The notes beneath the pieces are model-generated. The model saw only the letters and a list, made by a program, of their open reading frames with translations, made no database searches and was not told where the DNA came from. The position numbers and the translations under genes are program-made. Below, one piece after another: positions 29,890 through 57,773 of a stretch of DNA of 64,000 nucleotides; position 1 is the stretch's first letter; every line of letters starts with the position of its first letter. Source of the DNA: an uncultured Thermoanaerobaculia bacterium (GTDB taxonomy: Bacteria > Acidobacteriota > Thermoanaerobaculia > Gp7-AA8); assembly GCA_964650405.1 (NCBI GenBank), contig CAZYTO010000001.1, forward strand, positions 4,268 to 68,267, written 5' to 3'.

Positions 29890-29893
29890 GCCG

Positions 29894-34220: not shown

Positions 34221-34269
34221 AAGGGCGCACCGGGGTCAGGGGCCGCGCCGGGGTCAGAGCTTCTGTCTT

Positions 34270-34370: not shown

Positions 34371-34403
34371 CTTGTCGCGGGGGCCGCCGAGGCGGCGGGG
34401 TTC

Positions 34404-37221: not shown

Positions 37222-38763
37222 ATGACTCGGCGTTGTCTCTTCGTGATTCTTGCCCTGACGATCGGACTCCTTGCCATATCCATCTCCGGCCAGACGGTGG
37301 GAGCGGTGTTGACCGGCTCCCAGGAAGTGCCGGCGACGGCATCCCCCGGCTGGGGGAACTTCACCGGAACGTTCGACTCCACGCACTCGAACCTGACCAT
37401 CACCTGGACGGTAGCAAATCTCGGCGCCCCGATCACCGGGTTCCACATCCACCAGAAAGCCGCCGGGCAGCAGACGGGCGGCATCGTCTTCAATGTCCAG
37501 GGCCTCGGCGGGACGTTCGTAAACGGCAAGCTGACCGGAACGTTCCCGATCACGCCAACCCTGGCTACGCAGATCCTTACGAGCCCCTCGGATTTCTACG
37601 TCAACGTTCACACGAGTCAGTTCCCGGGCGGCGCGGTGCGCGGCGACCTGGCCATCAACAGCGGCGGAATGATTACGTATGCCGCAGATCTCCGCGGGAC
37701 GAACGAAGTGCCGGCCAACTCGAGCACCGCGTACGGCTCGGCGTTCGTGACGATCAATCCGAACAACAACCAACTGTCTTGGGAAGTGGCCACGACGGGT
37801 CTTTCGCCCACCCTGTCGCATATCCACGGGCCGGCGGCCGCGGGCGTGAATGGGTCGGTGATCATCAGCTTCGCCACGAACGCTTCGGCGTTTACGAACG
37901 GGCGGACGAACGGCTCCATCGACATCAGCTCGCTCAATCCCACGACGCTGGCGACACTGCTGTCCGATCCCACGCAGTTCTATGTAAACGTCCACTCGGC
38001 GGCGTTCCCCGGAGGCGAGATTCGCGGGCAGCTCACGAACGCGAACGAGTACGACGTCGCCGTGGCCGGCCACGTAACGAACGCCCTCGGGCAGACGTTC
38101 GTGACGGACGTCCGCGTGTTCAACCCGTCCTATGACACGCCGGCGGACGCGCTGCTCGAGTATTTCCAGAGCGGAACGACGGCGAACGCGACGCAGTCGA
38201 TGGCCGTGAGCATTCCGGCGCGCGGCACCGCCGCGCTGGACGACGCCACGGGATCCTCGGGTCTCAACGTCAGCGGCATCGGCGCGATTCGCGTCTCGGG
38301 CGCGTCGAAGCTGGCGGTGACCTCGCGCATCTTCGCCGACCTCCGCAGCAGCGGGAAGGGAACGTTCGGCCAGTTCGCGCCGGGGTTCGCCCGCAGCGCC
38401 GCGCTGCGCCGGGGAACGCTGCCTCAGTTGTCGAACCGCTCCGATCTCTCGGCCGGCTACCGCACGAACATCGGTTTCTTCAACCCCGTGAACCAGACGG
38501 CCACCCTTCGCCTCGAGCTGCGCGACGCCACCGGCGCGCTGGTCGGGTCGAACCTGCTCACGTTGCAGGCGCTCTCGCAGCAGCAGAACGCGATCGGCGT
38601 GTACTTCCCCGGCGTCGATCTCTCGAACGCCACGAACCTGACCCTGACGTTCGATTCGAGCGTCGGCATCGTGACCTATGCCTCGGTCGTCGACAACGTC
38701 TCGACCGATCAGATCTTCGTCTTCGCGCAGGAGGATACCGGCACGGCGACGAACAGTAATTGA
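37222..38763 (+). CDS. Secreted protein with two tandem CHRD domains plus a C-terminal beta-rich domain
   Basis: RBS AGGAGG at 37209-37214. Signal peptide. Two copies of the CHRD pattern: GSQEVP..SPGWG...HIH......FYVNVHTSQFPGGAVRGDL, then EVPANSSTAYGSAF...HIHGP...FYVNVHSAAFPGGEIRGQL. Confidence 0.8.
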   Translation: MTRRCLFVILALTIGLLAISISGQTVGAVLTGSQEVPATASPGWGNFTGTFDSTHSNLTITWTVANLGAPITGFHIHQKAAGQQTGGIVFNVQGLGGTFVNGKLTGTFPITPTLATQILTSPSDFYVNVHTSQFPGGAVRGDLAINSGGMITYAADLRGTNEVPANSSTAYGSAFVTINPNNNQLSWEVATTGLSPTLSHIHGPAAAGVNGSVIISFATNASAFTNGRTNGSIDISSLNPTTLATLLSDPTQFYVNVHSAAFPGGEIRGQLTNANEYDVAVAGHVTNALGQTFVTDVRVFNPSYDTPADALLEYFQSGTTANATQSMAVSIPARGTAALDDATGSSGLNVSGIGAIRVSGASKLAVTSRIFADLRSSGKGTFGQFAPGFARSAALRRGTLPQLSNRSDLSAGYRTNIGFFNPVNQTATLRLELRDATGALVGSNLLTLQALSQQQNAIGVYFPGVDLSNATNLTLTFDSSVGIVTYASVVDNVSTDQIFVFAQEDTGTATNSN

Positions 38764-38816: not shown

Positions 38817-40379
38817 CTACGCCCGCTTCTGTACTGCCATCCGCTGTTGTGCTGCCGTCGTCACTAGTGAGAGAAACCGCTCCACCTCCGCGCGCGAAAG
38901 GGTAGGGAGGTGCTCGAGGAGGCCGAGGAGTTGTGTCGCCTCGTAGTTACCGACGGCGGCGGCGAGCTTTTGTCTCATCAGTGCACGCACTTCGTCGCCG
39001 CCCCCTGCGAAGCCGCGTGGGATGGAGATCGCGCGTTGAACGACGTGGCCGTTTGTGAGGCGGATCTCCACGCGTGCACCGATGGGCTTGGTCGATTCGC
39101 GAAAATCCAACGGTCGCCGGTCGCCGGCGGCACGCGCCAGCGCCGCCACGAGCCGCGCGACCTGCCACGCATTGCGCAGGCGCGCCGTCTTTGCGAGGGT
39201 CAGGGCGAAGAGCGCGGCCTTCCAGCGGGGGATGCGGCGCAGCGCGGCGCCGATGGGAATGTCGGCCGTGAGCGCATTGACGGTCAACGGCACGTCATGA
39301 CGCGTCCGCACCCGTGCCGCCAGCGCCCAGACGTCGGGTCTGGCAATCCAGTCGCGCTTCAACTGGGCGGGCGTGAATTCGCGGGCCAGGATCGCCGAGG
39401 CGAGGACGAAGGGCGTGGAGAACGTGAGCGTGGAGATGCACGAGCGGGGTCCGTCGAGATACGGCGCGGAGTGTGCGTCCATCCCCACGGTGAAGATCGA
39501 GGCTCGGACGGCGACGGCCGCGATGTCGTCAGGCGATAGGTTGTGAGTGCGGACGAGGTCGAGCGTGGCATCGAGCGCGGCACAGAGATAGCCGCAAACG
39601 GGATAGAGCTTGTAACTGTTCGTCTCCGTATGCCATCGCTCGCCGAGGCCGTCGAGGAAGTCGCGCACCGGCAGGCGAGTGGCCCTGGCGAAGAAACCGC
39701 CGGAATCGTCGAGCGGATCGCGCGGTGCACGAAGGCCGGCGCGCACGGCGTCGATTGCTTCCATGCCGGTTCGCACCGGCAGCGCCGCACACAGCACCTT
39801 GGCATCGGAGCCGAGGAACGCGGGATAGAGCGCGTGGCCCGGGTACGACAGCGCGATGGCCAGCGCCTCGGCGAACTGTGTCTCGTTCAGCCCTTCGAGC
39901 CTGGCCCGTGCCGCGGCGGCCGCGACGAGGTGGAGGTGCGTCGCCATCTGACCGCGCGTGGAGCCGACCGCACAGACCATGTTGATGCGCGCCGCGAGCT
40001 CGTTGGCGATGAGCTGGGCGAGGAGCATCTCGGCGCCCGAGCGGCCATCGGCCAGTGCCAGGGGCACGATCACCGACGAGTGGCCGGTATGACCGCCGAG
40101 CATCACGTCGTCGAAGTCGACGACCATCGACCATGCCGCCATGAGCATGGCTGCATGCGCCGGCGGTGCGCTCTCGCCGGTCGGAACGATCCGCGCCGCG
40201 CCGGGACCGGGCGAGGGAAAGGCCGCGGCGATTTGCGCTCCGAGGTCGCTGTCGAAACCGGTGAAGACCGCGGCGAGCATCGACAGCCACTGGTTGACGG
40301 CCTGCTCGCGTACGTGCCGCGGCACGTCGTCGAGGGTGAGCCGGCACGCCCAGCGCGCCATGCGTTGGAGCGTGGTCAC
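38817..40379 (-). CDS. MmgE/PrpD-family protein (2-methylcitrate-dehydratase fold)
   Basis: 520 aa with an N-terminus typical of the family (..LTLDDVPRHVREQAVNQWLSMLAAVFTG..). GTG start at 40379. It lies downstream, on the same strand, of the FAAL-ACP-aminotransferase megaenzyme gene. Confidence 0.85.
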   Translation of the reverse strand: MTTLQRMARWACRLTLDDVPRHVREQAVNQWLSMLAAVFTGFDSDLGAQIAAAFPSPGPGAARIVPTGESAPPAHAAMLMAAWSMVVDFDDVMLGGHTGHSSVIVPLALADGRSGAEMLLAQLIANELAARINMVCAVGSTRGQMATHLHLVAAAAARARLEGLNETQFAEALAIALSYPGHALYPAFLGSDAKVLCAALPVRTGMEAIDAVRAGLRAPRDPLDDSGGFFARATRLPVRDFLDGLGERWHTETNSYKLYPVCGYLCAALDATLDLVRTHNLSPDDIAAVAVRASIFTVGMDAHSAPYLDGPRSCISTLTFSTPFVLASAILAREFTPAQLKRDWIARPDVWALAARVRTRHDVPLTVNALTADIPIGAALRRIPRWKAALFALTLAKTARLRNAWQVARLVAALARAAGDRRPLDFRESTKPIGARVEIRLTNGHVVQRAISIPRGFAGGGDEVRALMRQKLAAAVGNYEATQLLGLLEHLPTLSRAEVERFLSLVTTAAQQRMAVQKRA

Positions 40380-40410
40380 GCGGTGCTCGCAATCGGAGGA
40401 AGGCCCTCAG

Positions 40411-40520
40411 GAACGAGCGACGAGCGACCAGCGGCCAGCGAGACGCGATCAGCGGCCAGCGGAGCGCAACCAGCGAAGTGCGACCAGCGAACAGCGATCA
40501 GCGACCAGCGAATTGGAGCC
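40411..40520. repeat. Degenerate tandem repeat: nine CAGCG units (GACCAGCG / GATCAGCG / GGCCAGCG) in ~100 bp, in the spacer between the megaenzyme and MmgE/PrpD genes
   Basis: Sequence: acgagcgaccagcggccagcgagacgcgatcagcggccagcggagcgcaaccagcgaagtgcgaccagcgaacagcgatcagcgaccagcgaattgg. A near-palindrome CCTCCCTACGTAGGAGG follows at ~40536-40555. Confidence 0.4.
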
Positions 40521-40592
40521 CCCTCGAGGAGTCGCACCTCGTTCCCCTCCCTACGTAGGAGGTGCATCACTGTCAATGCTTCGGGGGCCGGA

Positions 40593-43500
40593 TCACGCAC
40601 GCACACCGGCCAGCCGCTCGTAGCCGGCTTCGTCCTCCCTCTTCTCGAGCCTGTGGTCGAGCAGGACGCGGAATCCCAGCTCGTCCGCGAGCCGCTCCAT
40701 CTCCAGCACCTGCTGGAGTGAAAGGTCATATCCGAGACCGCTGTCCTGGTAGCGCTGGTCCATGGCCAGCATCATCGTCTCGGCCATGCAGGCGTAGGCG
40801 CTGCCGCGGGCCAGCGAGGCGTTGAACCCGAGCGAGGCGTCGCCGGGCATCCGCACCACGCCGCCGTCTATGACCAGGACGTCGGGACGGGCCGCGCGCA
40901 CCGCGGCGTCGACGTTCGACGGCCGCGAGATGTCGCAGACGATGGCGCGCTTGCGCAGGTTCTCGTCGCGCACCATCCGCTCGGTCGTGCTCGTACAGCA
41001 GACGACGAGATCGACGTCCGGCAGCGTTCCGGCGGCGTCGACGGAGATCTCGAGCGCATGCGTCCGCCGGATCAGCTCCTCGCCGATGCGTACCAGCGCG
41101 GCACGGTCGGGCGTCGGCGGAAGGGTGAAGTCGAGCTCCTCGACCCAGCTTGCGACGGAGCCCGGGGTGAGGTCAGACCCGCTCCGCAGCTCGTCGAGGG
41201 ACCAGACGATCCGGCCGGCGACCTGCAGCAGGCGCTCGCGCGTCTCGTTCGGATGGGCGGGATTGCCGATGAGCACGAGCCGCCCCGCATCGCGCGAGAG
41301 GAGGATCGACAGCGCGGACCCGATGGCCCCGCCGGCACCGACGATGCCGACCGTGCGGCGGGCCAGGTTGAGGCTCCGCTCCGCCGCGGCCAGGCGGATG
41401 GTCTGCCGCGCCGCGACGGCCGTGAACGAGTTCCCGGTCGTCAGCGGCGGCAGTCCGTTGCCCTTGAGCGACAGGCCGCCCTGCGTGACCACGGAGGTGT
41501 AGGCGCCGAGGCCGATGATCTTCGCGCCGCGCTTCTGGGCCAGCTTCGCCGCGTCGTAGATCTCGGCCACGGCCCGGTCGTGCTTCATGGCCCGCAGTTC
41601 CTCGGCGCGCCGCGGCACGAGGATGAACTCCCCGTATGCCGACTTGTGATTGTCGCCGGTGACACGCGTCTCGCCGATGACCAGCGGGTCGAAGTTGTCG
41701 CCGAGGGCGTTCGAAAGCGCGGAGAGCTGCGCCTCGTCGAGCGGCGCGAGGCTGCCGTCGATATCGCCGTAGTCCTTCCACGCCAGCGGATGCACGAGGA
41801 AGGCGAAGCGCCCTTCGTTCCGGCGCGGCTCGAAGCGGTGGGCACGCGCCTCGGCGCGAGGGCGGTGGATCTCGACCGTGGCGCTGAAGCCGGTGACCTG
41901 CGAGGTGAGCGCAGCGAGGTTACGCCGGTCGATCCGTTGCAGCACGCGCTCCAGCGCGTGGAGGAAGAACTGGCACTCGTCCCACGTGGCCGTCAGCGGC
42001 GGCTCGATGCGCAGCACGCCCCCCTGGTTGAGCGTGTAGCCGACGCGTACGCCTTCGACGTGGAGGAGGTGGCTGACCACGAGGGCTGTCAGCGCTTCCT
42101 GCTCGCCGAGGTACCCGAGCAGGCCGTCGCCGGCATTGTGGCGAGTGAGACCAAAGCGGAGACCGAGGAGGTAGCCGCGCCCGCGGACTTCGCCGATGAG
42201 GCCCGGATAGCTGCGATCGAGCGCCAGCAGGCCGTCCTTGAGCCGGGCGCCGTTCGCGGCCACCTGGCCGATCAGCGCGCCTTTGTTCTCTTCGAGGAGA
42301 TCGAGGGTGGCCAGGCCGGCGCGGCAGGCCAGCGTATTACCTGCGAAGGTCGACGTGTGTTTCAGCGCGAACTCGTCGTTGTAGGCGGCGGCCGTGCAGA
42401 GACACGCGCCGATGGGAACGAGCCCGCCGCCAAGCGCCTTGGCCACGGTCATCACGTCGGGGGTGATGCCGAGATCGCGGCAGACGAACATCGCGCCGGT
42501 CCGGCCCAGCCCCGTCTGGATCTCGTCGGCGACGAAGAGCGTGCCGGTCTCGCGGCAGATCTTGCGCGCCTGGCGGAGATACCCCGCCGGCGGCTCCACG
42601 ATGCCGCCCTCTCCCTGGATCGGCTCGACGACGAATGCCGCGTGCCGGCCGCCGGAGAGGATCCGGCGTAGCGCGTCGAGATCGCCGTACGGAACGTACT
42701 CGAAGCCGGGCACCGGCGCTCCGAACGGTTTCTGGTACTTCTCCTTGTCCGTCGCGGAGAGCGCGCCGAGCGTCTTGCCGTGGAAACCGTTGTTCGCGGC
42801 GAGGACGGCGTGGCGTCCGGTCGTGGAGCGGCAAAGCTTGATGGCCGCCTCGATGGCTTCCGCGCCGCTGTTGGCGAACGTGACATACGCCATGCCCGGC
42901 GGCGCCACGGCGAGCAGCCGCTCCGCCAGCTCTCCGGCGGCGTTGAGCAGCGACGGCTGGACGAAGCTCGGCTCGCCGCGCTCGCGCACGGCCTGCAGCG
43001 CAGCCCAGATGCGGGGTGGATTGAAGCCGAACGGGAGGGCACCGTATTGCGCGAGAAAGTCGAGATACCGCCGGCCGTTCTCGTCCCACAGCCAGCTTCC
43101 CTCGCCGCGCACGAACGACTTGTCCATGCCCATTTGTGTCAGGAGACGCCCGAGCTCGGGGTTCACGGACGTTTCGAAGGGATGCGGGCGGCGAGCGGCG
43201 AGCGGCGAGCGGGGAGACGCTGGAGTCGAACGGGAGTCGGCCAGCGGGGGACGTTGCATGGCGACCGACGGCTGAAGCTGGGGCGGTGCGGACGGGATTG
43301 CCGCGGCCTGCGGAGTTAGACGCACCGGCAAGGGAGGTGGCGGCGGGCTGGTCGTTTTCTTCGTGTGCGGCGGAACGAGCGGCGTGACGTTGGCCGGAGA
43401 GGCCGGCTCGCGCGGCGTTTCCTGAATGCGGCGGACGGGCTGGCGGGGGCGCGGCCGCCCCTCGAAGAGGCTCCCCGCGTCCAGGTGGAGCGCGAACGTC

Positions 43501-45395
43501 TCCTCGATCTCGCCGACGAGGGTGACGACGACGAGGGAGTCGAGGCCGAACGCCACGAGCGGCAGGTCGCGGTCGAGGAGTGCAGCCGGCTGTCGCGTTC
43601 GTGCGGCGATGCCCTCGACCAGCCACGACTCCAGGCGGTCGAGGCCACGTCCCCGCTTCGGGGCAGTTGGTTCGTCCAGTCGGGCGAACAGCGCCTCGTC
43701 CCTCCAAGCGGTGATGGGGTCCAGGTTGCCAGCCAGGAACTCGTTCCGGATCAGCGCGCGCTGCGTCTTGCCGCTGGTCGTCTTCGGCAGGCTGTTCGGG
43801 CGGAGGAGGGAGACGGCGGAGACCTCGACCGTGAGCTCGGCGGCGACGGCGCTGCGGATGCGTGCCATGAGCGCATTCGTGTCGAGATCGCGCCGCGCCT
43901 CGCGGCGGACCTCGGCGACGATGACCAGTCTCTCCGCACCGGCCACGTCGGCCGAGACCGCCGCGACGAACGAGGCGTGAATGGCCGGATCGCACTGCTC
44001 GACGACCTGCTCGATGTCCTGGGGCGCGAGGTTGCGGCCGCGGATGATGATCAGGTCCTTGATGCGGCCGGTGACGAACAGCTCCCCATCGTGCAGGAAG
44101 CCGAGGTCGCCGGTGCGCATGAACGGACCGTCGCCATCGGCGAGATGCGCAGCAAACGTCTCCGCGGAGAGCTCCGGCTGATGCCAGTAGCCTTGCGCCA
44201 CGCTCGGGCTGCCGAGCCAGATCTCGCCCACTTCGTCCTCGTTGCAGCGGCGTCCCGAGCCGGATTCGACGATCACCACGCGCGAGTCGAGCAGGGGAGC
44301 CCCGCAACTGACGAGGCTCGCGCACGGCGCCGTGGCCGCCGGGCGCGGCCGATGCGACTCCAGGCTGGCGCGCGAGAACGACGTCGTGCCGCGGTGGTAG
44401 CGGCCGGTGGCAAAGAGCGTGTTCTCGGCGAGACCATAGCAGGGGAAGAACGCCTCGCGCCGGAAGCCGCACGGGGCGAACGCTTCGGCAAACGCATCGA
44501 GCGTGGCGGCGCGGATCGGCTCCGCGCCGTTGAAGGCGGTGCGCCACCGTGAGAGATCGAGTCCCTCCCGCTCCTCCGCAGAGATGCGCTCGACGCACAG
44601 CCCATAGCCGAAGTCGGGGGCGCCGCTGAACGTCCCGCCGTAACGGCTGACGGCGTCGAGCCAGAGGCGCGGCTTCTTGAGGAAATCGACCGGTGCGAGC
44701 AGGTAACACGGCACGCCGTTATAGAGCGACGACAAGACGATGCTGATCAGGCCCATGTCGTGGAAGAGCGGCAGCCACGACACGATGACCGTGTCGGGGC
44801 CGTGATGGACGGCCTCCTTCGCCAGGGCCTGATTGTGAATGATGTTGCCGTGGCTGACCATCACGCCTTTCGGCGCGGAAGTCGACGCTGACGTGTATTG
44901 CAGGAAGGCCAGAGTATCGGGTCCGGCATTGGGATCGACCCACGCCGAAGCTTCGTCGAGGGACACCTCGCTGGTGATCAGCCACTCGACGGCGGCCAGG
45001 CCGGGGGCTTCGTCGAAGCGCGCCGCCAACTGGCGATGGACGACGTCGGTGGTCATGGCCACTTTGGGCCGGGCGTCGTCGAGGATGGCCGCCAGGCGCT
45101 TGAGGTTGTGATTGGCCCGCGGCGGATAGCCGGGAACAGCCACGGCGCCGGCGGCCAGACATCCATAGAAGGCGGCGATGTACTCGGTCCCGCTGGGATA
45201 GAGGAGCAGGACGCGCTCGCCCCGCGCGCCGAGCCGTTGCAGCCGGGCGGCCAGGGCCCGTACGCGCCGGTCCAACTGGCCGAAGGAGAGGGTCTCCGAC
45301 TCGTCGCCTCCGCTGAGGAACGTATAGGAGCGCGCGCCCGGCCGGGTCTGGGCGCGGTCGCGAAGCAGGTGAATGAGCGAAGCAGGCGATGCCAT
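40593..45395 (-). CDS. Four-domain biosynthetic enzyme: fatty acyl-AMP ligase (FAAL) - ACP - Pro-rich linker - class-III (PLP) aminotransferase - C-terminal Rossmann-fold NAD(P)-binding dehydrogenase-like domain
   Basis: 1,600 aa. The N-terminal ~580 aa is an adenylation/FAAL fold (..YTFLSGGDESETLSFGQLDRRVRALAARL..). The carrier domain has a GLDSL phosphopantetheine site. The linker is PPPPPLPVRLTPQAAAIPSAPPQLQPS. The aminotransferase motifs are ..ANSGAEAIEAAIKL.., ..FHGKTLGA.., and ..VADEIQTGLGRTGAMF... The C-terminal ~450 aa contains GIVGAGGAIGSALSILL but no family that can be confidently assigned. Confidence 0.85.
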   Translation of the reverse strand: MASPASLIHLLRDRAQTRPGARSYTFLSGGDESETLSFGQLDRRVRALAARLQRLGARGERVLLLYPSGTEYIAAFYGCLAAGAVAVPGYPPRANHNLKRLAAILDDARPKVAMTTDVVHRQLAARFDEAPGLAAVEWLITSEVSLDEASAWVDPNAGPDTLAFLQYTSASTSAPKGVMVSHGNIIHNQALAKEAVHHGPDTVIVSWLPLFHDMGLISIVLSSLYNGVPCYLLAPVDFLKKPRLWLDAVSRYGGTFSGAPDFGYGLCVERISAEEREGLDLSRWRTAFNGAEPIRAATLDAFAEAFAPCGFRREAFFPCYGLAENTLFATGRYHRGTTSFSRASLESHRPRPAATAPCASLVSCGAPLLDSRVVIVESGSGRRCNEDEVGEIWLGSPSVAQGYWHQPELSAETFAAHLADGDGPFMRTGDLGFLHDGELFVTGRIKDLIIIRGRNLAPQDIEQVVEQCDPAIHASFVAAVSADVAGAERLVIVAEVRREARRDLDTNALMARIRSAVAAELTVEVSAVSLLRPNSLPKTTSGKTQRALIRNEFLAGNLDPITAWRDEALFARLDEPTAPKRGRGLDRLESWLVEGIAARTRQPAALLDRDLPLVAFGLDSLVVVTLVGEIEETFALHLDAGSLFEGRPRPRQPVRRIQETPREPASPANVTPLVPPHTKKTTSPPPPPLPVRLTPQAAAIPSAPPQLQPSVAMQRPPLADSRSTPASPRSPLAARRPHPFETSVNPELGRLLTQMGMDKSFVRGEGSWLWDENGRRYLDFLAQYGALPFGFNPPRIWAALQAVRERGEPSFVQPSLLNAAGELAERLLAVAPPGMAYVTFANSGAEAIEAAIKLCRSTTGRHAVLAANNGFHGKTLGALSATDKEKYQKPFGAPVPGFEYVPYGDLDALRRILSGGRHAAFVVEPIQGEGGIVEPPAGYLRQARKICRETGTLFVADEIQTGLGRTGAMFVCRDLGITPDVMTVAKALGGGLVPIGACLCTAAAYNDEFALKHTSTFAGNTLACRAGLATLDLLEENKGALIGQVAANGARLKDGLLALDRSYPGLIGEVRGRGYLLGLRFGLTRHNAGDGLLGYLGEQEALTALVVSHLLHVEGVRVGYTLNQGGVLRIEPPLTATWDECQFFLHALERVLQRIDRRNLAALTSQVTGFSATVEIHRPRAEARAHRFEPRRNEGRFAFLVHPLAWKDYGDIDGSLAPLDEAQLSALSNALGDNFDPLVIGETRVTGDNHKSAYGEFILVPRRAEELRAMKHDRAVAEIYDAAKLAQKRGAKIIGLGAYTSVVTQGGLSLKGNGLPPLTTGNSFTAVAARQTIRLAAAERSLNLARRTVGIVGAGGAIGSALSILLSRDAGRLVLIGNPAHPNETRERLLQVAGRIVWSLDELRSGSDLTPGSVASWVEELDFTLPPTPDRAALVRIGEELIRRTHALEISVDAAGTLPDVDLVVCCTSTTERMVRDENLRKRAIVCDISRPSNVDAAVRAARPDVLVIDGGVVRMPGDASLGFNASLARGSAYACMAETMMLAMDQRYQDSGLGYDLSLQQVLEMERLADELGFRVLLDHRLEKREDEAGYERLAGVRA

Positions 45396-45576
45396 GACTG
45401 TTCGATATCGATTCGATGACGGTCCGATTCGTGTGACTCGTTGCTGACGGCGCGGGGATTTGTGACGGCAATGTAGATCGGAATACGGAAGTTGTCAATT
45501 CCATGAAGAAAGAATTGCGTCATGCCGTTATTTAATGTATAACGCGGCCATCCACTATTGCGGGCCGGAGGATCTG
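45396..45576. promoter_or_regulatory. AT-richer divergent promoter region of the biosynthetic cluster
   Basis: Candidate sigma70-like elements for the plus operon: TTGCGT-N17-TATAAC (about 45517-45545). RBS GGAGG at about 45566-45570, then ATG at 45577. Repeated TGTGAC motifs lie upstream. Confidence 0.35.
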
Positions 45577-46707
45577 ATGAATTTCCTGAAACGGGATCGG
45601 GAGACGCTGGAGAGATTTCTGCCGGGGCTCGACGCCCGCCTGCTGAACATCCCCCTCATGGACATCGAACAGCCGGGAAACCCCGGCCTCACCTTCCTGC
45701 GCGAGCTGGAAGGCGCCGCCCTGCTGGTTCCTGCCCAGCACGGCGGTAAGGGAGCCTCGGCCGCGGAAGCCATCCAGATTCACCGCGCCGTGGCCACCCG
45801 GTCGCCCTCCCTGGCCATCGCCATGACCATGCATAATTTTTCCGTCGCCACCCTGGTCGAGTACCTCTTCTATGGCGACTACACGGTGGAGCTGCTGCAG
45901 CAGATCGCCGGCGGCCAGTTGCTGGTGGCCTCGGGGTTCGCCGAGGGGCGGGCGGGCACGAGCATTCTCGATCCGGCCATGAAGGCTACGCCGCTGGAGG
46001 GCGGCGGCTACCTCCTCAACGGCAGCAAGAAGCCCTGCAGCCTCCCGAATTCGATGCACATTCCTACGGCCAGCGGGGCGGTGCCGTCCAAAAGCGGCAA
46101 CGGCGGTCATCGCCGGGCCGTTGCCGTTGTTCCGGCTGATGCCGAGGGGATCGATCGGAGGCCGTTCTGGAGCAGCAACGTTCTACGGGGCGCGGAGAGC
46201 GAAGAGCTCTGCCTGACCAACGTGGCCATCACCGACGCGCAGCTCTTCTTCCCGGAAGTGGAGGAGAGCCTCGATGCCGTCGAGGCGGGCGGGTTTCTCT
46301 GGTTCGAGCTGCTCGTCTCGGCCTCGTATCTCGGCGTGGCCTCGGCCCTCGTGGAGAAGGTGCTCACCAGCAACCGTGGCGACGCCAATGAACGGATGCA
46401 ACTGGCCATCGAATGCGAAGGGGCCATGGCCGCGCTGGAAGGCGTCGCGCGCGCCATGCAGACGGGCGAGCGGGGCGAGGCCATCCTCGTACAGTCGCTC
46501 CTCGTCCGCTTCTCCGTGCAGCAGGCCATCGAGCGGATCACCGCTCGGGCGGCCGAGCTCCTCGGCGGCATGGCCTTCATCAAGTCGCCCGACGTCGGCT
46601 ACCTCTACGCGGCCAGCCGGGCCCTGGCCTTCCATCCGCCGTCGCGGCTCAGCGTGAGTGCGGCCGTCGACGGCTACCTGCACGGCCAGCCGATGCAGGT
46701 GGCGTAA
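45577..46707 (+). CDS. Acyl-CoA-dehydrogenase-fold flavoenzyme (candidate amine N-hydroxylase / acyl-ACP dehydrogenase)
   Basis: ACAD middle-domain pattern (..GRAGTSILDPAMKATPLEGGGYLLNGSKKPCS..) and a C-terminal helical domain. The RBS-supported start is at 45577. The listed upstream ATG at 45535 would overlap the putative -10 box. Confidence 0.7.
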   Translation: MNFLKRDRETLERFLPGLDARLLNIPLMDIEQPGNPGLTFLRELEGAALLVPAQHGGKGASAAEAIQIHRAVATRSPSLAIAMTMHNFSVATLVEYLFYGDYTVELLQQIAGGQLLVASGFAEGRAGTSILDPAMKATPLEGGGYLLNGSKKPCSLPNSMHIPTASGAVPSKSGNGGHRRAVAVVPADAEGIDRRPFWSSNVLRGAESEELCLTNVAITDAQLFFPEVEESLDAVEAGGFLWFELLVSASYLGVASALVEKVLTSNRGDANERMQLAIECEGAMAALEGVARAMQTGERGEAILVQSLLVRFSVQQAIERITARAAELLGGMAFIKSPDVGYLYAASRALAFHPPSRLSVSAAVDGYLHGQPMQVA

Positions 46708-46716
46708 ACGGAGGCG

Positions 46717-47187
46717 GTGATCATGGACAAGCACAACCGCTTCCATACGCCGGCGATCTACAACCTCGAGCGGCTGGACTGGCTGGTAATCGGTGCCGTA
46801 GCCCTCATCCTGCTGTGCGTGGAGCGGCATGAGGTGCGGTGGTGGCCTTTCGTCATTGCCTTCGCGTTTCCCGACGTCATCGGGACGTTCCCCGGCCTCT
46901 ACTGCTATTACGGGCGGCGCAACGGCGCGCATCGCTCCATTCCCGGCGTCATTCACCAGCTCTACAACTTCGGACACTCGTTCGCCACGCTCGGCCTGTT
47001 CTGTGCCGGCTGGTTCCTGGTGACGCGCCGCTTCGAATGGTGGATGCTGGCGTTCCCCATCCATCTCGCGGGCGACCGGTCGATCTTCGGCAACATCTAC
47101 AAGCCATTCGGCACGGCCTTCGAGCCGGTGCCCCACGACGCCTTCGTCCGCTTCGAGCGCGAGTACCGCGCCGCCGGCACCTGGTGA
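46717..47187 (+). CDS. Small integral membrane protein (156 aa, ~4 TM), hypothetical
   Basis: Hydrophobic segments WLVIGAVALILLCV, WWPFVIAFAFPDVIGTF, FATLGLFCAGWFLV, WWMLAFPIHLAG. Tightly spaced within the operon. Confidence 0.5.
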   Translation: MIMDKHNRFHTPAIYNLERLDWLVIGAVALILLCVERHEVRWWPFVIAFAFPDVIGTFPGLYCYYGRRNGAHRSIPGVIHQLYNFGHSFATLGLFCAGWFLVTRRFEWWMLAFPIHLAGDRSIFGNIYKPFGTAFEPVPHDAFVRFEREYRAAGTW

Positions 47188-47198
47188 GGAGGACGCTC

Positions 47199-48155
47199 AT
47201 GACTGCCATCCCGAAGGAAGCGGACTGGAACGAGGCGCCCGGCCTGATCGAAGGCGCCAGCCGCCTCGAGCTGACCGCGCGCGATTGCCATCTCGACTAT
47301 TGGCTGACGGCCGTGCCGCAGGGCACGCTGCGCGGAACCGTTCACGGGCACTCGCCGCAGGCGCGCATCCCCGACTACATGCTGCGCGAAGGGCCGCTGC
47401 GGGCAGCCATCATGAACGAGTTCGCCTTCCGGGCCATCGCCGAGGAGAAGGCCACACGCGCCATCACCTACATCGTGGCCAGCGCGCCCGACGTCTGGTC
47501 CATGGAGTTCTTCGTCACCCAGCTCGTTGACGAGGCACGCCACTCGCGCGTGCTCCGCGACCACCTCGTGGAACCCGGCGTAACGGAGGACGAGCTGTTC
47601 CCGCCGAACGAGCGCATTGCTGGCGACGACGTCCGCGCCACCCTGGCGCCGCTCGAAGACTTCGCCCTGCCGATGATCCGCGACGATCGCGACTTCATCG
47701 CCGGAGTGGTCATCCTGACCATTCTCGTGGAAGGCGTTCTGGCACCGGCCGCGGAGCTGTCGCACTGCAAGTGGCGGCTCCTCGATCCCGCCGCGGCGGA
47801 GATCGAACGGGGAGCCAACATCGACGAGATCCGCCACCTCACGGTGGGCAGCGCGATCGTCCGCGAGTACCTGCTTGCGCATCCCGGCGAGAAGGCGCAC
47901 GTCCTCGAGATCATCACGCGGGGGCGGGCTCTGTGGGCCGCCCTCCCGGCCTCGGAGGTGATCTTCAAACGCGAGATCCTCTTCCAGCAGGGACTGGAGG
48001 AGCACGCTGCCGTAGCCGGCGACTACGAGGTCTGGCCGGGGCGGCGCCTCGTGGATACTACGCCGGAAGAGCGCCTGATGACCGCGCACACGTGGTCGGC
48101 GGAGATGCAGAACAGCCGCCTGCGCTATATGGGATTGCCGGAGGCCATTCCGTGA
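47199..48155 (+). CDS. Ferritin-like non-haem di-iron carboxylate protein (putative oxygenase/oxidase)
   Basis: RBS GAGGAGG precedes ATG 47199. Two E...ExxH pairs: EFAFRAIAEE / QLVDEARH, and ILVEGVLAPAAE / NIDEIRH. This is the 4-helix-bundle di-iron ligand pattern found in AurF-, ADO- and UndA-like enzymes. Confidence 0.6.
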   Translation: MTAIPKEADWNEAPGLIEGASRLELTARDCHLDYWLTAVPQGTLRGTVHGHSPQARIPDYMLREGPLRAAIMNEFAFRAIAEEKATRAITYIVASAPDVWSMEFFVTQLVDEARHSRVLRDHLVEPGVTEDELFPPNERIAGDDVRATLAPLEDFALPMIRDDRDFIAGVVILTILVEGVLAPAAELSHCKWRLLDPAAAEIERGANIDEIRHLTVGSAIVREYLLAHPGEKAHVLEIITRGRALWAALPASEVIFKREILFQQGLEEHAAVAGDYEVWPGRRLVDTTPEERLMTAHTWSAEMQNSRLRYMGLPEAIP

Positions 48156-49186
48156 TGCCGGCGAGCGATGCACCGGCTTCCGAGCGCCTGGCCGCGGTCG
48201 TGCGCCGCGGGCTGCGGCTCGACGAAGGCGCGGCCGTATCTCTACGGGAGGTCGGAGAGCTCGCCAACATCAATTACGTCTATCGCGTCGAAGTGCCGGG
48301 CCGCAGCCTCTACCTCAAGGTCGTGCCCGAAAAGCCGAAGCGTCTTCCGGTACGCCTCCCGCGGGAGCGTGTCTTTTCCGAGGCGGAGGCCATCCGCCGT
48401 TTCGGCGCACTGGCGGGAGGGCGCGTTCGCATCCCCGAGGTGCTGTTCGTCGACGAAGAGGAGATGGCCCTCGGCATGACCGACGTGGGCGAAGGGCGGC
48501 ACGTGCTCTTCGAGGTGTTGCCCGACGGCTTCGAGCTGCTGAGCGAAGCCGCGGAAGCGCTGGGACTGGCTCTCGGGACGATTCATCGCGGCACGCGGGC
48601 AGGCGGCAGCCTGAGGCCCGCTGCGGAAGAGGCGGTGATTCGCAGGATCGTCTTCGACGGTCTGCTCGCGCCGGGTGCCATGCACATCTTTCCCGAGGCG
48701 TGGCCCGACGTGCTGGCCGAGATGCAGGCCTTTCGCGAGTGCCTCATCCACGCCGACCTCTGGAGTAAGAACCTCCTCGTCCGCGCGGGCGAGCCCGTGG
48801 CCATCGTCGATTTCGAAGGTGTCTGCTACGGCGATCCCGCTTTCGACCTCGGCACGCTGACGGCGGTGGCGGTGTTGCCGGCACTGGAACGGCCGGCGTT
48901 GGCAGGAGAGGCGCTGGGGTTTGTGACGCGCCTGCTGCGGAGCTGGGCGATGACCGCCGGCGCCGACGCCTGGTACCCGGCCGTGCAGCGGCGGACGTTC
49001 CGCGCCACGGCGACGTTCCTCGCCGCTCGGGGCTTCGGTCCGTTCGCCTACGACCTGAGCGACGAGGCAAAGCAGCGGATCGCCCAGCTCGGGCGCGCGC
49101 TGGCCACGAGCCCGCCGCCGGACTTCGCCGGCTTTCGCGATCTCGTCCTCCGGTATGCAGCCGTGACCGCCGAGGCGCGCTCGTGA
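48155..49186 (+). CDS. Aminoglycoside-phosphotransferase/choline-kinase-like (APH-fold) kinase
   Basis: Catalytic-loop HADLWSKNLL and metal-binding IVDFE motifs. ATG overlaps the previous stop (TGATG). Confidence 0.75.
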   Translation: MPASDAPASERLAAVVRRGLRLDEGAAVSLREVGELANINYVYRVEVPGRSLYLKVVPEKPKRLPVRLPRERVFSEAEAIRRFGALAGGRVRIPEVLFVDEEEMALGMTDVGEGRHVLFEVLPDGFELLSEAAEALGLALGTIHRGTRAGGSLRPAAEEAVIRRIVFDGLLAPGAMHIFPEAWPDVLAEMQAFRECLIHADLWSKNLLVRAGEPVAIVDFEGVCYGDPAFDLGTLTAVAVLPALERPALAGEALGFVTRLLRSWAMTAGADAWYPAVQRRTFRATATFLAARGFGPFAYDLSDEAKQRIAQLGRALATSPPPDFAGFRDLVLRYAAVTAEARS

Positions 49187-50331
49187 TGCGCAGCCGGGTC
49201 TACGACTCGATCGACGACATCGGCGCGGCCCGGCTTGCGCCGCTGTCCACCGGCCTCGATTTCTCCTACGGCCTGCTGCGGGCTATGGAGCGCTCGATCT
49301 GGGGCGACCTCGCCGTCCGCTACCTGGCCGTCGAGGATGACGACGGCACCCTGCTCCTCTTCACGCCCGTCTATGCCGGCAGTAATCTCAATTTCAACGC
49401 GCTGCTGCCGAAGGCCATCCAGAAGGGGTATGGCGCGCTTGTTCGCGCGGTGGGGCAGGCCATGGCCACCCGCGTGGCCGTCGTCGGCTGCCTCATCTCC
49501 GATCGAGGCTGGATCCCGATGCATCCGGAGCTGCGGGATCGCGCCGCGGCATTGCGCCTGATGTTGCAGGACCTCGACGTCGTGGCGAAGCAGCACCATG
49601 CCCAACTGGCCATGCTCAAGGACATCCATCGCGACTTTCCGGAGGAAGACCGCGCCGTCCTGCGCGCCGGCGGATACCTGGAGGGCTTCTCCCTCCCCAC
49701 CATCCGCATCAACACGGCCTATCCGTCGTTCGAGGACTTCCTGGCGAAGCAGTTGACGAAGAACGGCCGCAAACATGCGCGCAAGCAGTTTCACCGGGCC
49801 GAGGGCGTCTTCGAGCTGCGGGCCATCGCCGATTTCGAGGAGATGGTGCCCCGCGTCTTTCCGCTGCACCGGGCGGTGTTCCTGAAGGCGAAGTACCAGT
49901 TCGAGGAGCTGCCGCCGCGCTTCTTCGTCGAGTGCGCCCGGTCGCAGACTCCGAAGACGGAGCTGATCGTCTGCGAGCGGGTGGCTGACCGGCGCATTGT
50001 CGGTTCGCTGATGATCTTCTACGACGACCACGAACAGCAGAACAAGCGGATCGGCATCGACTACAGCATCGAAGAGAGTGGTCTGGTCTACAACCTGCTC
50101 AACTACACCGGCATCCAGCGCGCCATCGCCCGCGGCATCCGGACGCTCTGGCTCGGCCAGAGCTCCTACGTCCCCAAGACGCGCCTCGGCGGTGAGCTCG
50201 ACGACCAGTACCTGCTGATCAAGGCGTACGACCCGCTCCTGAAGCCGACCCTGCCGCTGCAGAAGTGGTGGATGTCCCGCTACTCCGCGGCCAACATCCT
50301 CGCCGGCGTCGAACAAGGGGTGTCGCTGTGA
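49183..50331 (+). CDS. FemXAB/BioF2-like GNAT-fold acyl/aminoacyl transferase
   Basis: 382 aa with two tandem GNAT-like halves. It resembles the Acetyltransf_6 / FemAB family that includes tRNA-dependent aminoacyl transferases. ATGA overlap with the kinase gene. Confidence 0.6.
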   Translation: MMRSRVYDSIDDIGAARLAPLSTGLDFSYGLLRAMERSIWGDLAVRYLAVEDDDGTLLLFTPVYAGSNLNFNALLPKAIQKGYGALVRAVGQAMATRVAVVGCLISDRGWIPMHPELRDRAAALRLMLQDLDVVAKQHHAQLAMLKDIHRDFPEEDRAVLRAGGYLEGFSLPTIRINTAYPSFEDFLAKQLTKNGRKHARKQFHRAEGVFELRAIADFEEMVPRVFPLHRAVFLKAKYQFEELPPRFFVECARSQTPKTELIVCERVADRRIVGSLMIFYDDHEQQNKRIGIDYSIEESGLVYNLLNYTGIQRAIARGIRTLWLGQSSYVPKTRLGGELDDQYLLIKAYDPLLKPTLPLQKWWMSRYSAANILAGVEQGVSL

Positions 50332-51374
50332 CCCGGGTCGTGCTGACGGGCGCCGCGACGATGACGGGCTTCGAGGTGCTGAAGTCGCTGCTCGAGTGCC
50401 ACGAGGTGACGTCCATCCGGCTGCTGCTGCCGGCAGGAGCATCCGGCCGCGTCGGCACGCTCCTCGGAGGGCTCCCTGCCTCGGTGCAGGTCACGGAGGC
50501 GCGGATTGATCTGCTGCAGTTCGGGTTGCCGCTCGCGGCGCTGGAGGAGCTTGCCGCGTCGTCGGACGTGGCCGTTCACTGTGCACAGCGCGAGAGGCCC
50601 GATCAGGATCTCGAACGGGCGCGGGAGGTGAACGTCCTGCCGGTCGTTACGTGGATCGCGCTGCTGGAGCGGCACCCGGCCTTGCGCCTGCACCACCTCT
50701 CGTCGGCGCTCGTCGGCGGCGACCGGAAAGGCCTCTTCACGGAGTTCGACCTCGACTGCGGCCAGGGTTTTCACAATGCCTGGGAGCGCAGCAAGTTCGA
50801 GGCTGAGGTGCGGCTGCGCGGATCGAGCGTGAGCGACCGGGTGACGATGTATCGCCCCAGCCATACGCTGGCCCGGCTGCCGGCCATGGAGCTCGGCGGC
50901 GCCTCACCGCTGCTGGCGACGCTCGCCGCGGCCTCGCTGCTGCCCGGAGACCCCAAAGCACGGCTCGACTTCGTCCCTGCCGACTACGTGGCCGGCGCGA
51001 TGGTGGCGCTGCTGCGCAAGGAAGCGGAAGGAACGTTCCACATCGCCTGCGGCTGGAACGATTCGCTGCCGGTGACGCAGGCCGCCGCGCTGGCCGCTCA
51101 AGGCCGCGGGCGGGCCCGGGGCGCGTTCGTGCTGCCGCGCATCGCTTCCTGGCCGCAGAGCGTGTTCGGAGCGGCCGCGCCGAACGGGCTGTCGACGCGG
51201 CGCCTGGCGTTCGCCACGGCACGCGACCTCCTCCACCAGGGGCCGGTATTCGACACGTTCCGCGCGGAGGGCGCGCTCGACATCCCCTGCCCGGCGCCCG
51301 AAAGCTGGCTCGCCGATGCGGTCCGCCTCGGCGAATCGCAGCACTGGCACAGAGCCAGTCGCGTCGTTCGCTGA
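50328..51374 (+). CDS. Stand-alone thioester reductase (NRPS R-domain-like extended SDR, NAD_binding_4)
   Basis: GTG start overlapping the previous stop (GTGA). TGAATMTGFEV nucleotide-binding loop and catalytic Y..SK (HNAWERSKFEAE), as in carboxylic-acid reductase / NRPS terminal reductase domains that release aldehydes from carrier proteins. Confidence 0.75.
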   Translation: MTRVVLTGAATMTGFEVLKSLLECHEVTSIRLLLPAGASGRVGTLLGGLPASVQVTEARIDLLQFGLPLAALEELAASSDVAVHCAQRERPDQDLERAREVNVLPVVTWIALLERHPALRLHHLSSALVGGDRKGLFTEFDLDCGQGFHNAWERSKFEAEVRLRGSSVSDRVTMYRPSHTLARLPAMELGGASPLLATLAAASLLPGDPKARLDFVPADYVAGAMVALLRKEAEGTFHIACGWNDSLPVTQAAALAAQGRGRARGAFVLPRIASWPQSVFGAAAPNGLSTRRLAFATARDLLHQGPVFDTFRAEGALDIPCPAPESWLADAVRLGESQHWHRASRVVR

Positions 51375-51434: not shown

Positions 51435-52076
51435 TCACCAGAGCAACGGCACCAGCGCCCGCACCTCGCGCCGGTAGGTTGTGTACGCGTCGCCGAGGCG
51501 GCCGATCATCTCAGCTTCTTCATAGCGGATGCGGCGGACGTAGGCGAAGAGCTGGAAGACCAGCGAGAGCGCGGCCCCGATCCAGGCGTGGAGAAACAGC
51601 AGCGTCCCCACGAACAGCAGCAGCGCGCCGCCGTACGCGGGGTGGCGGATGAAGCGGAACGGCCCTGTGCGGATGACCTGGTGGTCGTCGTACACAGTGA
51701 TGAACCAGGTGAAGTAGCGGCCGAGCGTGCGCACGGCCCAAACGCGCAGACTGAGACCGGCCAGCATCAGGGCGGCCGCGATCGTGGTGACAGCGTCCCA
51801 GTCGAAGCTGGCGGGGTAGCGCAGGTACAGCGCCTCCAGCACGCCGGCGAGCTGGGTGAGGTAGACGGACCAGACGATCTGCGCGGCCGTGCCGCGGTCG
51901 CGGGGAGGGGCAGCCGCGTCGATCGGCTTGTAGACCGGCTGGAAGATGGAGATGGCCATGGCCACGGCCACCAGGATCCAGAGCTGCGGATGGAGCAGCG
52001 CCCGCGGCTGTCCCGCGGCGGGCAGGATGTAGAACGCGGCCGCGGCGATGAGCGCCGTGAGGACCTTGCGGATCAT
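51435..52076 (-). CDS. Isoprenylcysteine carboxyl methyltransferase / phospholipid methyltransferase-family membrane protein
   Basis: 213 aa, multi-TM, with RHPAYGG and EE...L motifs. ATG at 52074-52076. The longer listed ORF upstream is Arg/Pro-rich read-through. Confidence 0.8.
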   Translation of the reverse strand: MIRKVLTALIAAAAFYILPAAGQPRALLHPQLWILVAVAMAISIFQPVYKPIDAAAPPRDRGTAAQIVWSVYLTQLAGVLEALYLRYPASFDWDAVTTIAAALMLAGLSLRVWAVRTLGRYFTWFITVYDDHQVIRTGPFRFIRHPAYGGALLLFVGTLLFLHAWIGAALSLVFQLFAYVRRIRYEEAEMIGRLGDAYTTYRREVRALVPLLW

Positions 52077-52651
52077 CCGTGACCCGGGTCCGCGAGCTCC
52101 ACGAGCCCCTTCGACTGCCGGGCCGCGGCCTTCTGGATGTCGCGGAGGATGCGCAGGTGGTGGCGATGGTGGATGTCGAGGAAGAAGAACCACTGGCGCG
52201 AGGTGAGGTACTTCATCCGCGGGTGCATGCTCTTGCCGGTTGCCGCGCGGACGCGGCCGAGGTCCCAGTCGTTGTCGGCGAGCCGGCGGTGCAGCCGCGT
52301 CTTCAGCGGCTGGATCTCGACCAGGGAGCCCGTTCCCGGGACGAGGGGCGGAATGGTCGGGAACAGCTTGCGGGGGATGCGGCCCGTCACCATGAGACTG
52401 CGGCCGAGGAAGCTCGGCTGGTCGCGCTCGTGCCCGCCGCCGAGCGACTCGTCGAGGCGGTCGAAGACCCAGTGCGTAGCGAGGTAGAGGTGCTCGAGCT
52501 GCTGGCCATACGTCCAGTGACTGACCTCGGGAACGTGCAGGGTGAGGTCGCGCCGGCAATGCTCGGCCAGCTCCGCCGCGAAGCGGGGAGCGGCATGGAG
52601 CCGGCCCTCGCCGTCGAGCGATCCCCACAGCCGGTGCACTGCTCGTGTCAT
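52073..52651 (-). CDS. DinB/YfiT-like putative metalloenzyme
   Basis: 192 aa, with RBS AGGAGAG upstream of ATG 52651. Motifs WTYGQQLEHLYLATHWVFDRL and FLDIHHRHHLRILRDI fit the DinB_2 His-triad pattern. Its stop overlaps the ICMT start (ATGA). Confidence 0.5.
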   Translation of the reverse strand: MTRAVHRLWGSLDGEGRLHAAPRFAAELAEHCRRDLTLHVPEVSHWTYGQQLEHLYLATHWVFDRLDESLGGGHERDQPSFLGRSLMVTGRIPRKLFPTIPPLVPGTGSLVEIQPLKTRLHRRLADNDWDLGRVRAATGKSMHPRMKYLTSRQWFFFLDIHHRHHLRILRDIQKAAARQSKGLVELADPGHG

Positions 52652-57739: not shown

Positions 57740-57773
57740 GGCTTCCGGCTCTCCTCGCTCGGGGCGTATGGCG

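Follow-up and report, generated by a model that had tools for sequence, protein, structure and literature searches.

Gene clusters for aliphatic azoxy compounds are already known, with a shared core of an amine N-hydroxylase (VlmH type), an aminoacyl transferase (VlmA), a membrane protein (VlmO), and a di-iron oxygenase (VlmB); azodyrecin represents the version fed by a fatty amine. To our knowledge, all characterized clusters are from Streptomyces or Kitasatospora. We herein describe a candidate cluster of this type from an uncultured bacterium of the Thermoanaerobaculia (Acidobacteriota). It is located in a window of 64,000 nucleotides (assembly GCA_964650405.1, contig CAZYTO010000001.1, positions 4,268 to 68,267; G+C content 67%) and consists of a four-domain megaenzyme, seven genes called K, H, O, B, J, A, and R in the present study, and a methyltransferase gene of the ICMT family (Table 1). 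The original prediction for this DNA proposed a valanimycin- or elaiomycin-like azoxy cluster with a fatty-amine module in place of valine decarboxylase. Both parts of this proposal, read as a cluster of the valanimycin/azodyrecin type, were supported as far as a sequence allows, by the homology of B, O, H, and K to the valanimycin enzymes and by the domain set of the megaenzyme. The cluster probably makes an azoxy-type lipid with an N-N bond from a fatty acid, i.e., a long-chain aliphatic azoxy compound. We are far less certain of its precise final structure.

In the valanimycin clusters (vlm; Streptomyces viridifaciens/Kitasatospora setae and plasmid clusters such as NZ_CP108116), the amine is generated from valine by the decarboxylase VlmD. 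VlmA is a PF09924 (MprF C-terminal) protein (PMC9379638). VlmO converts an O-aminoacyl-hydroxylamine to a hydrazine, which VlmB, or AzdB of the azodyrecin pathway, oxidizes through an azo to an azoxy compound (PMC11705231; azodyrecin knock-out study). A pairing of the VlmJ/VlmK type has been linked to exo-olefin formation (PMC9379638). In the azodyrecin (azd/ady), KA57-A, and elaiomycin-type clusters of Streptomyces, a fatty acid is converted through an aldehyde to an amine, which is N-hydroxylated; tRNA-dependent aminoacylation and the VlmO- and VlmB-type steps follow, and azodyrecin carries a methyl ester. The present locus resembles these clusters in this order of reactions.

The fatty amine has a precedent in tambjamine YP1 biosynthesis. 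TamA (an ANL domain with an acyl carrier protein [ACP]) and TamH (a transaminase with a reductase of the acyl-ACP reductase [AAR] type) convert a C12 acid to a C12 amine in vitro, and the conversion proceeds solely through the ACP-bound thioester (PMC9594044).

Homologues of the valanimycin enzymes and the putative fatty-amine megaenzyme

Judged from alignments, B, O, H, and K are true homologues of the valanimycin machinery. The references for the identities of O, H, and K were valanimycin-type plasmid clusters of Streptomyces (e.g., NZ_CP108116). Two such clusters contain a DUF2156 protein (VlmA), an ACAD protein (VlmH), a small hypothetical protein (VlmO), a VlmB-like protein, a flavin reductase (VlmR), an APC permease, and a seryl-tRNA synthetase; one of the two adds a pyridoxal phosphate (PLP) decarboxylase, a protein of the DAG-kinase family (VlmJ), and an MmgE/PrpD protein (VlmK). 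The homologues of VlmH, VlmO, VlmB, and VlmK in the window are 42, 38, 52, and 35% identical, respectively. As in the valanimycin clusters, H, O, and B are neighbors in the same order (with a VlmR slot before B in those clusters), and a kinase is accompanied by an MmgE/PrpD protein. No NCBIfam model matched O, B, A, or K.

B matched a single entry among the PDB sequences, the "Putative VlmB homolog" (6d9f/8wvr; E 3.9e-100; residues 3-317 of 318). It was 49-52% identical to 13 Streptomyces records (tblastn, plasmids), all of which were labeled "VlmB-like protein" by PGAP. Its ligands E82, E112-x-x-H115, E178, and E210-x-x-H213 were invariant in 20 sequences. B is, therefore, most likely a VlmB/AzdB-type non-haem di-iron oxygenase that takes a hydrazine through the azo to the azoxy state. 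Identification as AurF, ADO, or UndA was ruled out because the VlmB homologue was the sole PDB match.

O was 38% identical (E 1e-33) to a VlmO-type protein of Streptomyces. Its residues D51, H85, H114, and D118, which were invariant in 32 sequences, correspond to D51, H82, H110, and D114 of VlmO, which are essential by mutagenesis (reviewed in PMC11705231). O also has a weak DUF4260 match, as does Ady6 (PMC9379638). We predict that O is an N-N bond-forming (hydrazine-forming) enzyme of the VlmO/AzdO type. H was 42% identical over its full length (E 2e-96) to the ACAD protein of a valanimycin-like Streptomyces cluster, and the nearest solved structures were DszC-type flavin monooxygenases; a function as an amine N-hydroxylase of the VlmH/AzdH type is predicted. 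Over 507 aa, K shared 35% identity (E 6e-69) with the MmgE/PrpD protein of a valanimycin-like Streptomyces cluster, and its best solved relative, IRG1, only reached E 4e-13. It is a putative VlmK-type dehydratase that would eliminate from a phospho-serine. The assignments of an ACAD-fold flavoenzyme, a small membrane protein, a ferritin-like di-iron protein, and an MmgE/PrpD protein as counterparts of VlmH, VlmO, VlmB, and VlmK, all made in the original prediction, consequently held.

The megaenzyme contains two fusions. In the first, an ANL adenylation domain is joined to an ACP with a phosphopantetheine serine. The best NCBIfam ANL matches of the adenylation domain were fatty-acid--AMP ligases (FAALs; PRK05850, E 2e-128), all under the curated cut-offs, and the D-S pair of the ACP was invariant in eight aligned homologues. 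In the second, a class III transaminase is joined to an AAR-type reductase. The transaminase domain matched the PigE equivalog model NF053554 (E 9e-153); K256 of the aligned segment was invariant in 15 homologues and would be the PLP lysine. The C-terminal 440-aa domain, which had been described only as a Rossmann domain, was refined by phmmer to an AAR-type thioester reductase, with matches to the N-terminal domain of PigE (4ppm, E 9e-20) and to a cyanobacterial acyl-ACP reductase (6jzu, E 1e-14). Its GAGGAIG motif (GxxGxxG) aligned with GATGDIG of AAR, and the cysteine of AYACMAETMML, which was invariant in 14 homologues, aligned with the catalytic C294 of AAR in MFACFAEAMLL. The four domains were conserved and collinear in the loci L006-L012, L014-L018, and L020 of the scan described below.

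Based on this domain set, the megaenzyme appears to be a natural fusion of TamA and TamH, i.e., a single-chain synthase of fatty amines from fatty acids. It would be self-contained, with no need for an external reductase. ANL-ACP loading, Cys-dependent AAR-type reduction, and class III transamination are shared with TamA and TamH and with PigE of the MAP branch of prodigiosin biosynthesis. In contrast to these systems, the four domains are present in one 1600-aa chain with a FAAL-like adenylation domain, and the amine is proposed to feed an N-N pathway rather than a pyrrole condensation. The route also differs from that of valanimycin, in which the amine is derived from valine, and from that of azodyrecin, in which AzdP/Ady2 (a putative fatty-acid reductase/dehydrogenase) and the transaminase AzdQ/Ady4 are separate proteins. 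We also considered the nocuolin A (noc) cluster, which shares FAAL/ACP, acyl-ACP reductase, aminotransferase, and N-monooxygenase genes. It was set aside because it contains AurF/ColD-like and polyketide synthase/nonribosomal peptide synthetase genes, and VlmO- and VlmB-type genes have not been described in it.

The stand-alone protein R had been assigned the reduction to the aldehyde. Its AlphaFold2 (AF2) model (predicted local distance difference test score [pLDDT] 92) is R-domain-like, with the terminal R domain of myxalamid as the best fold match; a phmmer search of R against PDB sequences gave nothing useful. The motifs of a terminal thioester reductase are degenerate: R of the window has TGAATMTG in place of TGxxGxxG and W-E-R-S-K in place of YxxxK. 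Among 45 aligned relatives, the cluster-associated clade has TGAATLxG at the first site; the catalytic tyrosine is replaced by tryptophan in most of its members and the lysine by Met, Leu, Asn, Ala, or Cys in approximately 40%. More distant relatives (outgroups) retain TGATGFxG and Y-E-x-S-K. Due to these degenerate motifs and the AAR domain of the megaenzyme itself, R is probably not the source of the aldehyde and was rejected in this role. The AAR-type domain within the megaenzyme almost certainly catalyzes this reduction.

Variants of R with a C-terminal extension, 682-720 aa in length, were noted in some genomes. In L002 (13656-15704), R is extended by an alpha/beta hydrolase. In L016 (13725-15887), the extension has no Pfam match. 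R of the window (348 aa) has no extension.

Recurrence of the gene set

A search with O retrieved approximately 100 homologues at 50-81% identity, which were mainly metagenomic. One was from a metagenome-assembled genome (MAG) of the Bryobacterales, in which the gene order is identical to that of the cluster in the window. A locus scan that was queried with an O alignment, with one genome per species, gave 17 loci, to which all proteins of the window were compared using tblastn. The megaenzyme, K, H, O, B, J, A, and R were found together in L002/L013, L006-L008, L010-L012, L016-L018, and L020. The grouping of these genes is far above chance because the same genes are co-located in all of these loci. 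The synteny search suggested with the original prediction thus recovered the full set in at least 11 further loci from two phyla, the Acidobacteriota and Gammaproteobacteria, with identities of 36-86% depending on the protein. The hosts were Thermoanaerobaculia, Pyrinomonadaceae, Holophagales, Bryobacterales, Ca. Angelobacter, Allohahella sp. A8, and Wenzhouxiangella. K was syntenic in 12 loci.

An ICMT gene was present within 10 kb of O in L002, L006-L008, L012, L014-L018, and L020. It was near all full-set loci except L010 and L011, which end early. We concluded that the ICMT-family methyltransferase is the ninth gene of the set.

The genes may instead be chance neighbors or decaying remnants without a joint function, and the loss of the canonical catalytic motifs in R is in line with this possibility. 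However, the nine-gene set recurs in two phyla at 36-86% protein identity and with translational coupling, and the catalytic residues are intact in B, O, J, and the ACP, transaminase, and AAR domains. We consider this explanation to be extremely improbable.

The closest relatives of the window are MAGs of the Acidobacteriota, and a chromosomal acidobacterial context fits the flanking hopanoid and alpha-2-macroglobulin genes. The host is a Gram-negative member of the Acidobacteriota, in contrast to that of valanimycin. The only complete, non-MAG genome among the loci is that of Allohahella sp. A8 (L016; NZ_CP172312, approximately 1357327-1377779). It has the full FAAL-type set in a different order, MEGA-O-B-J-A-R...K-ICMT-H, in which MEGA is the megaenzyme.

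Transferase, kinase, and the proposed pathway

A has only marginal Pfam matches, to FemAB_like (PF04339) and Acetyltransf_6 (PF13480). PF02388 and PF09924 did not match A, which places it neither among cell-wall FemXAB proteins nor among VlmA-type transferases, and PF09924 had no match anywhere in the window. A phmmer search of PDB sequences found no Fem protein and nothing useful. In an exhaustive profile search of 1.84 billion representatives, the family comprised 16 proteins at E<1e-30, three of which were full-length at E<1e-100, followed by a broad tail; by this measure, A is a small specialized offshoot of PF04339/PF13480. The predicted fold of A is closest to aminoacyl-tRNA-dependent FemX and MprF enzymes, and its identity to Fem/MprF structures is 9-16%. 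FemX/FemA and MprF/L-PGS modify the cell wall or lipids, whereas A was always found within an azoxy-type operon, with a hydroxylamine oxygen as its presumed acceptor. A grouping of A with cell-wall FemX enzymes was, thus, not observed.

In three loci, L019, L021, and L022, the O/B pair is located beside a canonical PF09924 protein instead of A. The position of A in the slot of VlmA is supported by this arrangement. We propose that A is an aminoacyl-tRNA-dependent O-aminoacylase of an N-alkylhydroxylamine and may be a functional analogue of VlmA. The original prediction regarded VlmA as a FemXAB homologue, which was incorrect: VlmA belongs to PF09924, and A has no sequence similarity to it. Its view of A as the counterpart of VlmA stood with respect to fold and context, but not to sequence homology.

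L019 (4864-11485; a gammaproteobacterial MAG) is a hybrid cluster. It encodes O, the canonical PF09924 transferase of the VlmA type, an APC permease, and a distant di-iron protein resembling B (27% identity). Its TamH-like transaminase-AAR protein (821 aa) has no FAAL.

If A instead used a CoA or ACP donor, the product would be an O- or N-acyl hydroxylamine (hydroxamate-type) lipid without an N-N bond, and O and B would act in other oxidative chemistry. The only Pfam matches of A are in the GNAT clan, which includes CoA-dependent enzymes, and A is missing within 10 kb in L014 and L015. On the other hand, its eight best structural matches all use aminoacyl-tRNA, O has the four residues required by VlmO for hydrazine formation, and the O/B pair adjoins a VlmA-type enzyme in the three loci in which A is replaced. 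Accordingly, we regard a CoA or ACP donor as improbable and favor a tRNA-dependent transfer by A.

The active site of the kinase J is intact, with K55, H199-x-D201-x4-N206, and D219 (DFE) being invariant. Among solved structures, 4-hydroxytryptamine kinase and MTR kinase are the closest to it. Each FAAL-type locus with a K homologue within 10 kb also had a J homologue, and this co-occurrence mirrors the phosphorylation-elimination pair VlmJ/VlmK. We propose that J is a functional analogue of VlmJ, with a putative substrate suggested by its fold and context. The original assignment as a VlmJ counterpart may apply to its function, given the intact kinase and its co-occurrence with K; a relationship to VlmJ was not found. 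The ICMT-type enzyme is proposed to be a carboxyl O-methyltransferase, with its putative target also suggested by its fold and context; it would parallel the formation of the methyl ester in azodyrecin, for which the unrelated Ady1 is responsible (PMC9379638).

Compared with valanimycin, the transferase is a FemX-fold PF04339/PF13480 protein rather than the PF09924 protein VlmA, and the kinase has an APH fold rather than being of the DAG-kinase type; VlmR and VlmL are absent, and an ICMT gene and a degenerate R-like protein are extra. In azodyrecin, the transferase (PF09924) and the soluble methyltransferase Ady1 (PF04072) belong to families unrelated to those in the window, alanine is used, and J/K dehydration is absent, whereas the J/K pair is present in the window.

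We propose the following pathway. The FAAL domain of the megaenzyme would adenylate a free fatty acid and load it onto its own ACP. The acyl group would be transferred to the cysteine of the AAR-type domain and reduced with NAD(P)H to the aldehyde, and transamination by the megaenzyme would give a primary fatty amine, for which TamA/TamH is the precedent. N-hydroxylation of the amine by H would depend on reduced flavin supplied by a reductase of the host. A may then form an ester between the oxygen of the hydroxylamine and an aminoacyl group, probably seryl, taken from tRNA, as judged from the fold of A, its context, and the presence of J and K. O, in the membrane, would rearrange the O-aminoacyl-hydroxylamine to an N-N bonded hydrazine, which B would oxidize via the azo to the azoxy compound; these two steps are proposed because O and B are homologous to VlmO and VlmB/AzdB and retain the key residues. 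J may phosphorylate the serine-derived hydroxyl, and K may eliminate the phosphate to give a 2-(alkyl-ONN-azoxy)acrylate, by analogy with the reactions of VlmJ and VlmK. The ICMT-type enzyme may methylate the carboxylate. The predicted product is a methyl ester that resembles valanimycin but has a lipid tail; the adjacent HlyD/MacB/OEP proteins may export it. The chemistry of TamA/TamH, VlmH, VlmO, VlmB, and VlmK has been shown elsewhere and is presumed here by homology.

The same N-N core may lead to another end product. This may be a lipid in the hydrazine or azo state or an azoxy lipid with an amino-acid part that is undehydrated or not derived from serine. In this case, J and K would have a different hydroxyl as their target, or J would have a role in self-resistance, and the ICMT-type enzyme would methylate a group other than the carboxylate. 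J is unrelated to VlmJ, and the small-molecule substrates of its family are very diverse. A may use an amino acid other than serine, the cluster has no seryl-tRNA synthetase, and azdB mutants accumulate hydrazine and azo compounds, i.e., stable intermediates. Against this, all six di-iron ligands of B are retained and its identity to VlmB-like proteins is 49-52%, K is specifically of the VlmK lineage (E 6e-69, in contrast to 4e-13 for other MmgE/PrpD structures), and J was detected in the FAAL-type loci wherever K was detected within 10 kb. We consider such a product to be rather unlikely and prefer the dehydrated azoxy lipid.

Several observations weigh against the azoxy pathway that we propose. 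A showed no sequence similarity to the Streptomyces DUF2156 (VlmA) protein (BLASTP, E 0.11), and its donor and acceptor are suggested by its fold and context only. J had no similarity to VlmJ (DAG-kinase type, PF19279), and the window contained no VlmJ homologue. Without homology of A to VlmA or of J to VlmJ, the substrates of both can only be inferred. R is well conserved and always follows A; however, it has no place in the pathway. In the acidobacterial MAG loci L014 (1-20450) and L015 (1-18506), the megaenzyme, H, O, B, J, and ICMT are present, whereas A, R, and a PF09924 protein are all missing within 10 kb. A tblastn search of the window with a Streptomyces query did not detect a VlmR-like flavin reductase, and neither a seryl-tRNA synthetase nor a tRNA gene was found in the window. 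None of the members of the cluster family has a known product. Regarding the absent partners, the azdR knock-out still makes its product, indicating that a VlmR-type component is not strictly required (azodyrecin knock-out study), and azodyrecin clusters also lack an aminoacyl-tRNA synthetase (PMC9379638). In L015, a VlmR-like flavin reductase gene directly follows ICMT.

The new features of the cluster are its phyla, the presence of the whole amine module in one protein, and the use of unrelated families in place of VlmA, VlmJ, and the methyltransferase. A literature search for azoxy clusters in Acidobacteria and Gammaproteobacteria and for an antiSMASH azoxy rule found nothing relevant; its coverage was incomplete, and a prior description is possible. 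The mining published in PMC9379638 was based on VlmA (PF09924) and VlmH and covered Actinobacteria only. Therefore, it would miss this cluster family.

We speculate, with the chances evenly balanced, that lipid-tailed azoxy electrophiles are common in Acidobacteriota and some marine or saline Gammaproteobacteria, that they are made through a new hydroxylamine-acylating tRNA-dependent family, an APH kinase convergent with VlmJ, and a single-chain amine synthase, and that VlmA-keyed mining is blind to them. If so, a natural-product pathway that forms an N-N bond would be described for the first time in the Acidobacteriota and Gammaproteobacteria. The present cluster indicates that the chemistry of VlmH, VlmO, VlmB, and VlmK extends to abundant, mostly uncultured soil Acidobacteriota as well as Gammaproteobacteria, with non-orthologous replacement at three steps (transferase, kinase, and methyltransferase). 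A would represent a candidate new family of tRNA-dependent transferases, and the compact one-protein route from a fatty acid to a fatty amine may be of biocatalytic interest. The cluster may also provide a handle on the secondary metabolism of Acidobacteriota, from which very few products are known. The prediction is testable in Allohahella sp. A8, which has a complete genome and the full set, if the strain is culturable or available.

Gene layout and flanking genes

The coordinates are summarized in Table 1. The eight genes of the original prediction were borne out by open reading frames (ORFs), Pfam, and NCBIfam. The plus-strand genes had been described as coupled by overlaps of 1-4 bp; such overlaps are confined to B/J, J/A, and A/R. 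H and O are separated by 15 bp and O and B by 11 bp, with a GGAGG-type ribosome-binding site in each gap. The start of H is probably at 45577 rather than at the ORF start of 45535 because homologues align from residue 15. The ICMT gene lies in an ORF of 397 aa; its start was placed at 52076 because the first 185 aa, which are rich in Pro and Arg, are not conserved. A DinB-ICMT fusion was ruled out for the same reason.

Table 1. Features of the candidate azoxy cluster (positions in the window)
Feature	Position	Strand	Basis
K, MmgE/PrpD	38817-40379	-	Pfam MmgE_PrpD_N + MmgE_PrpD_C
Megaenzyme, 1600 aa, AMP-binding/PP-binding/Aminotran_3	40593-45395	-	Pfam, NCBIfam
FAAL domain, aa 1-560	43716-45395	-	AMP-binding E 3e-68; AMP-dom_DIP2-like
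ACP domain, aa 591-648	43452-43625	-	PP-binding; GLDSL phosphopantetheine site
Class III PLP transaminase domain, aa ~732-1157	41925-43202	-	Aminotran_3 E 2e-87
AAR-type thioester reductase domain, aa 1161-1600	40593-41915	-	phmmer to PigE N-domain and AAR
Divergent intergenic region, 181 bp, between the megaenzyme operon and the H-O-B-J-A-R operon	45396-45576		
H, ACAD fold	45577-46707	+	Weak Pfam ACAD domains; VlmH-type homology
O, 154-aa integral membrane protein	46723-47187	+	VlmO-type homology
B, non-haem di-iron protein	47199-48155	+	VlmB-type homology
J, APH-fold kinase	48155-49186	+	Pfam APH E 8e-18; ORF start 48152/48155
A, dupli-GNAT, FemAB_like/Acetyltransf_6	49186-50331	+	PF04339/PF13480 clade; ORF start 49183/49186
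R, stand-alone, R-domain-like, 348 aa	50328-51374	+	NAD_binding_4 E 2e-15
ICMT/PEMT-family membrane methyltransferase, 213 aa	51435-52076	-	Pfam ICMT E 9e-19

A scan for promoters and terminators gave nothing exceeding chance. One sigma-70-like match in the divergent intergenic region (minus strand, 45498-45470) is weak evidence, with a chance expectation of 0.8. At this high G+C content, many long spurious ORFs are present on both strands (e.g., the N-terminal extension of the ICMT ORF, 52074-52628), and ORF length alone is unreliable.

Immediately upstream of the cluster, the minus strand carries genes for an OEP (32888-34411), a MacB-type permease (34404-35612), and HlyD (35823-37064). An exporter may be encoded by these genes, with no adjacent gene for an ABC ATPase being observed. 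An HlyD gene was also next to the cluster in L014, L015, and L020, as was one for a MacB-type permease in L014. A CHRD-domain protein of 513 aa (37222-38763) is encoded between the efflux genes and K and was not detected beside the cluster in the other loci.

An ABC1/UbiB-type atypical kinase is encoded at 53690-55684, 1.6 kb past the methyltransferase gene. Homologues (44-62% identity) were present within 10 kb of the cluster in L002, L006, L007, L008, and L012, and not in the gammaproteobacterial loci. In an isoprenoid/hopanoid block (26345-32820), DXP synthase is encoded at 26345-28246 and squalene-hopene cyclase at 30892-32820; a third gene (28234-29889) encodes a squalene/phytoene-synthase protein that starts with a PNP_UDP_1 domain. 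A bacterial alpha-2-macroglobulin of 1978 aa (15396-21332) has MG, bait-region, and TED domains. A membrane fatty-acid desaturase (21884-23239) and an FAD_binding_3 monooxygenase (56348-57820) are both encoded outside the conserved set.

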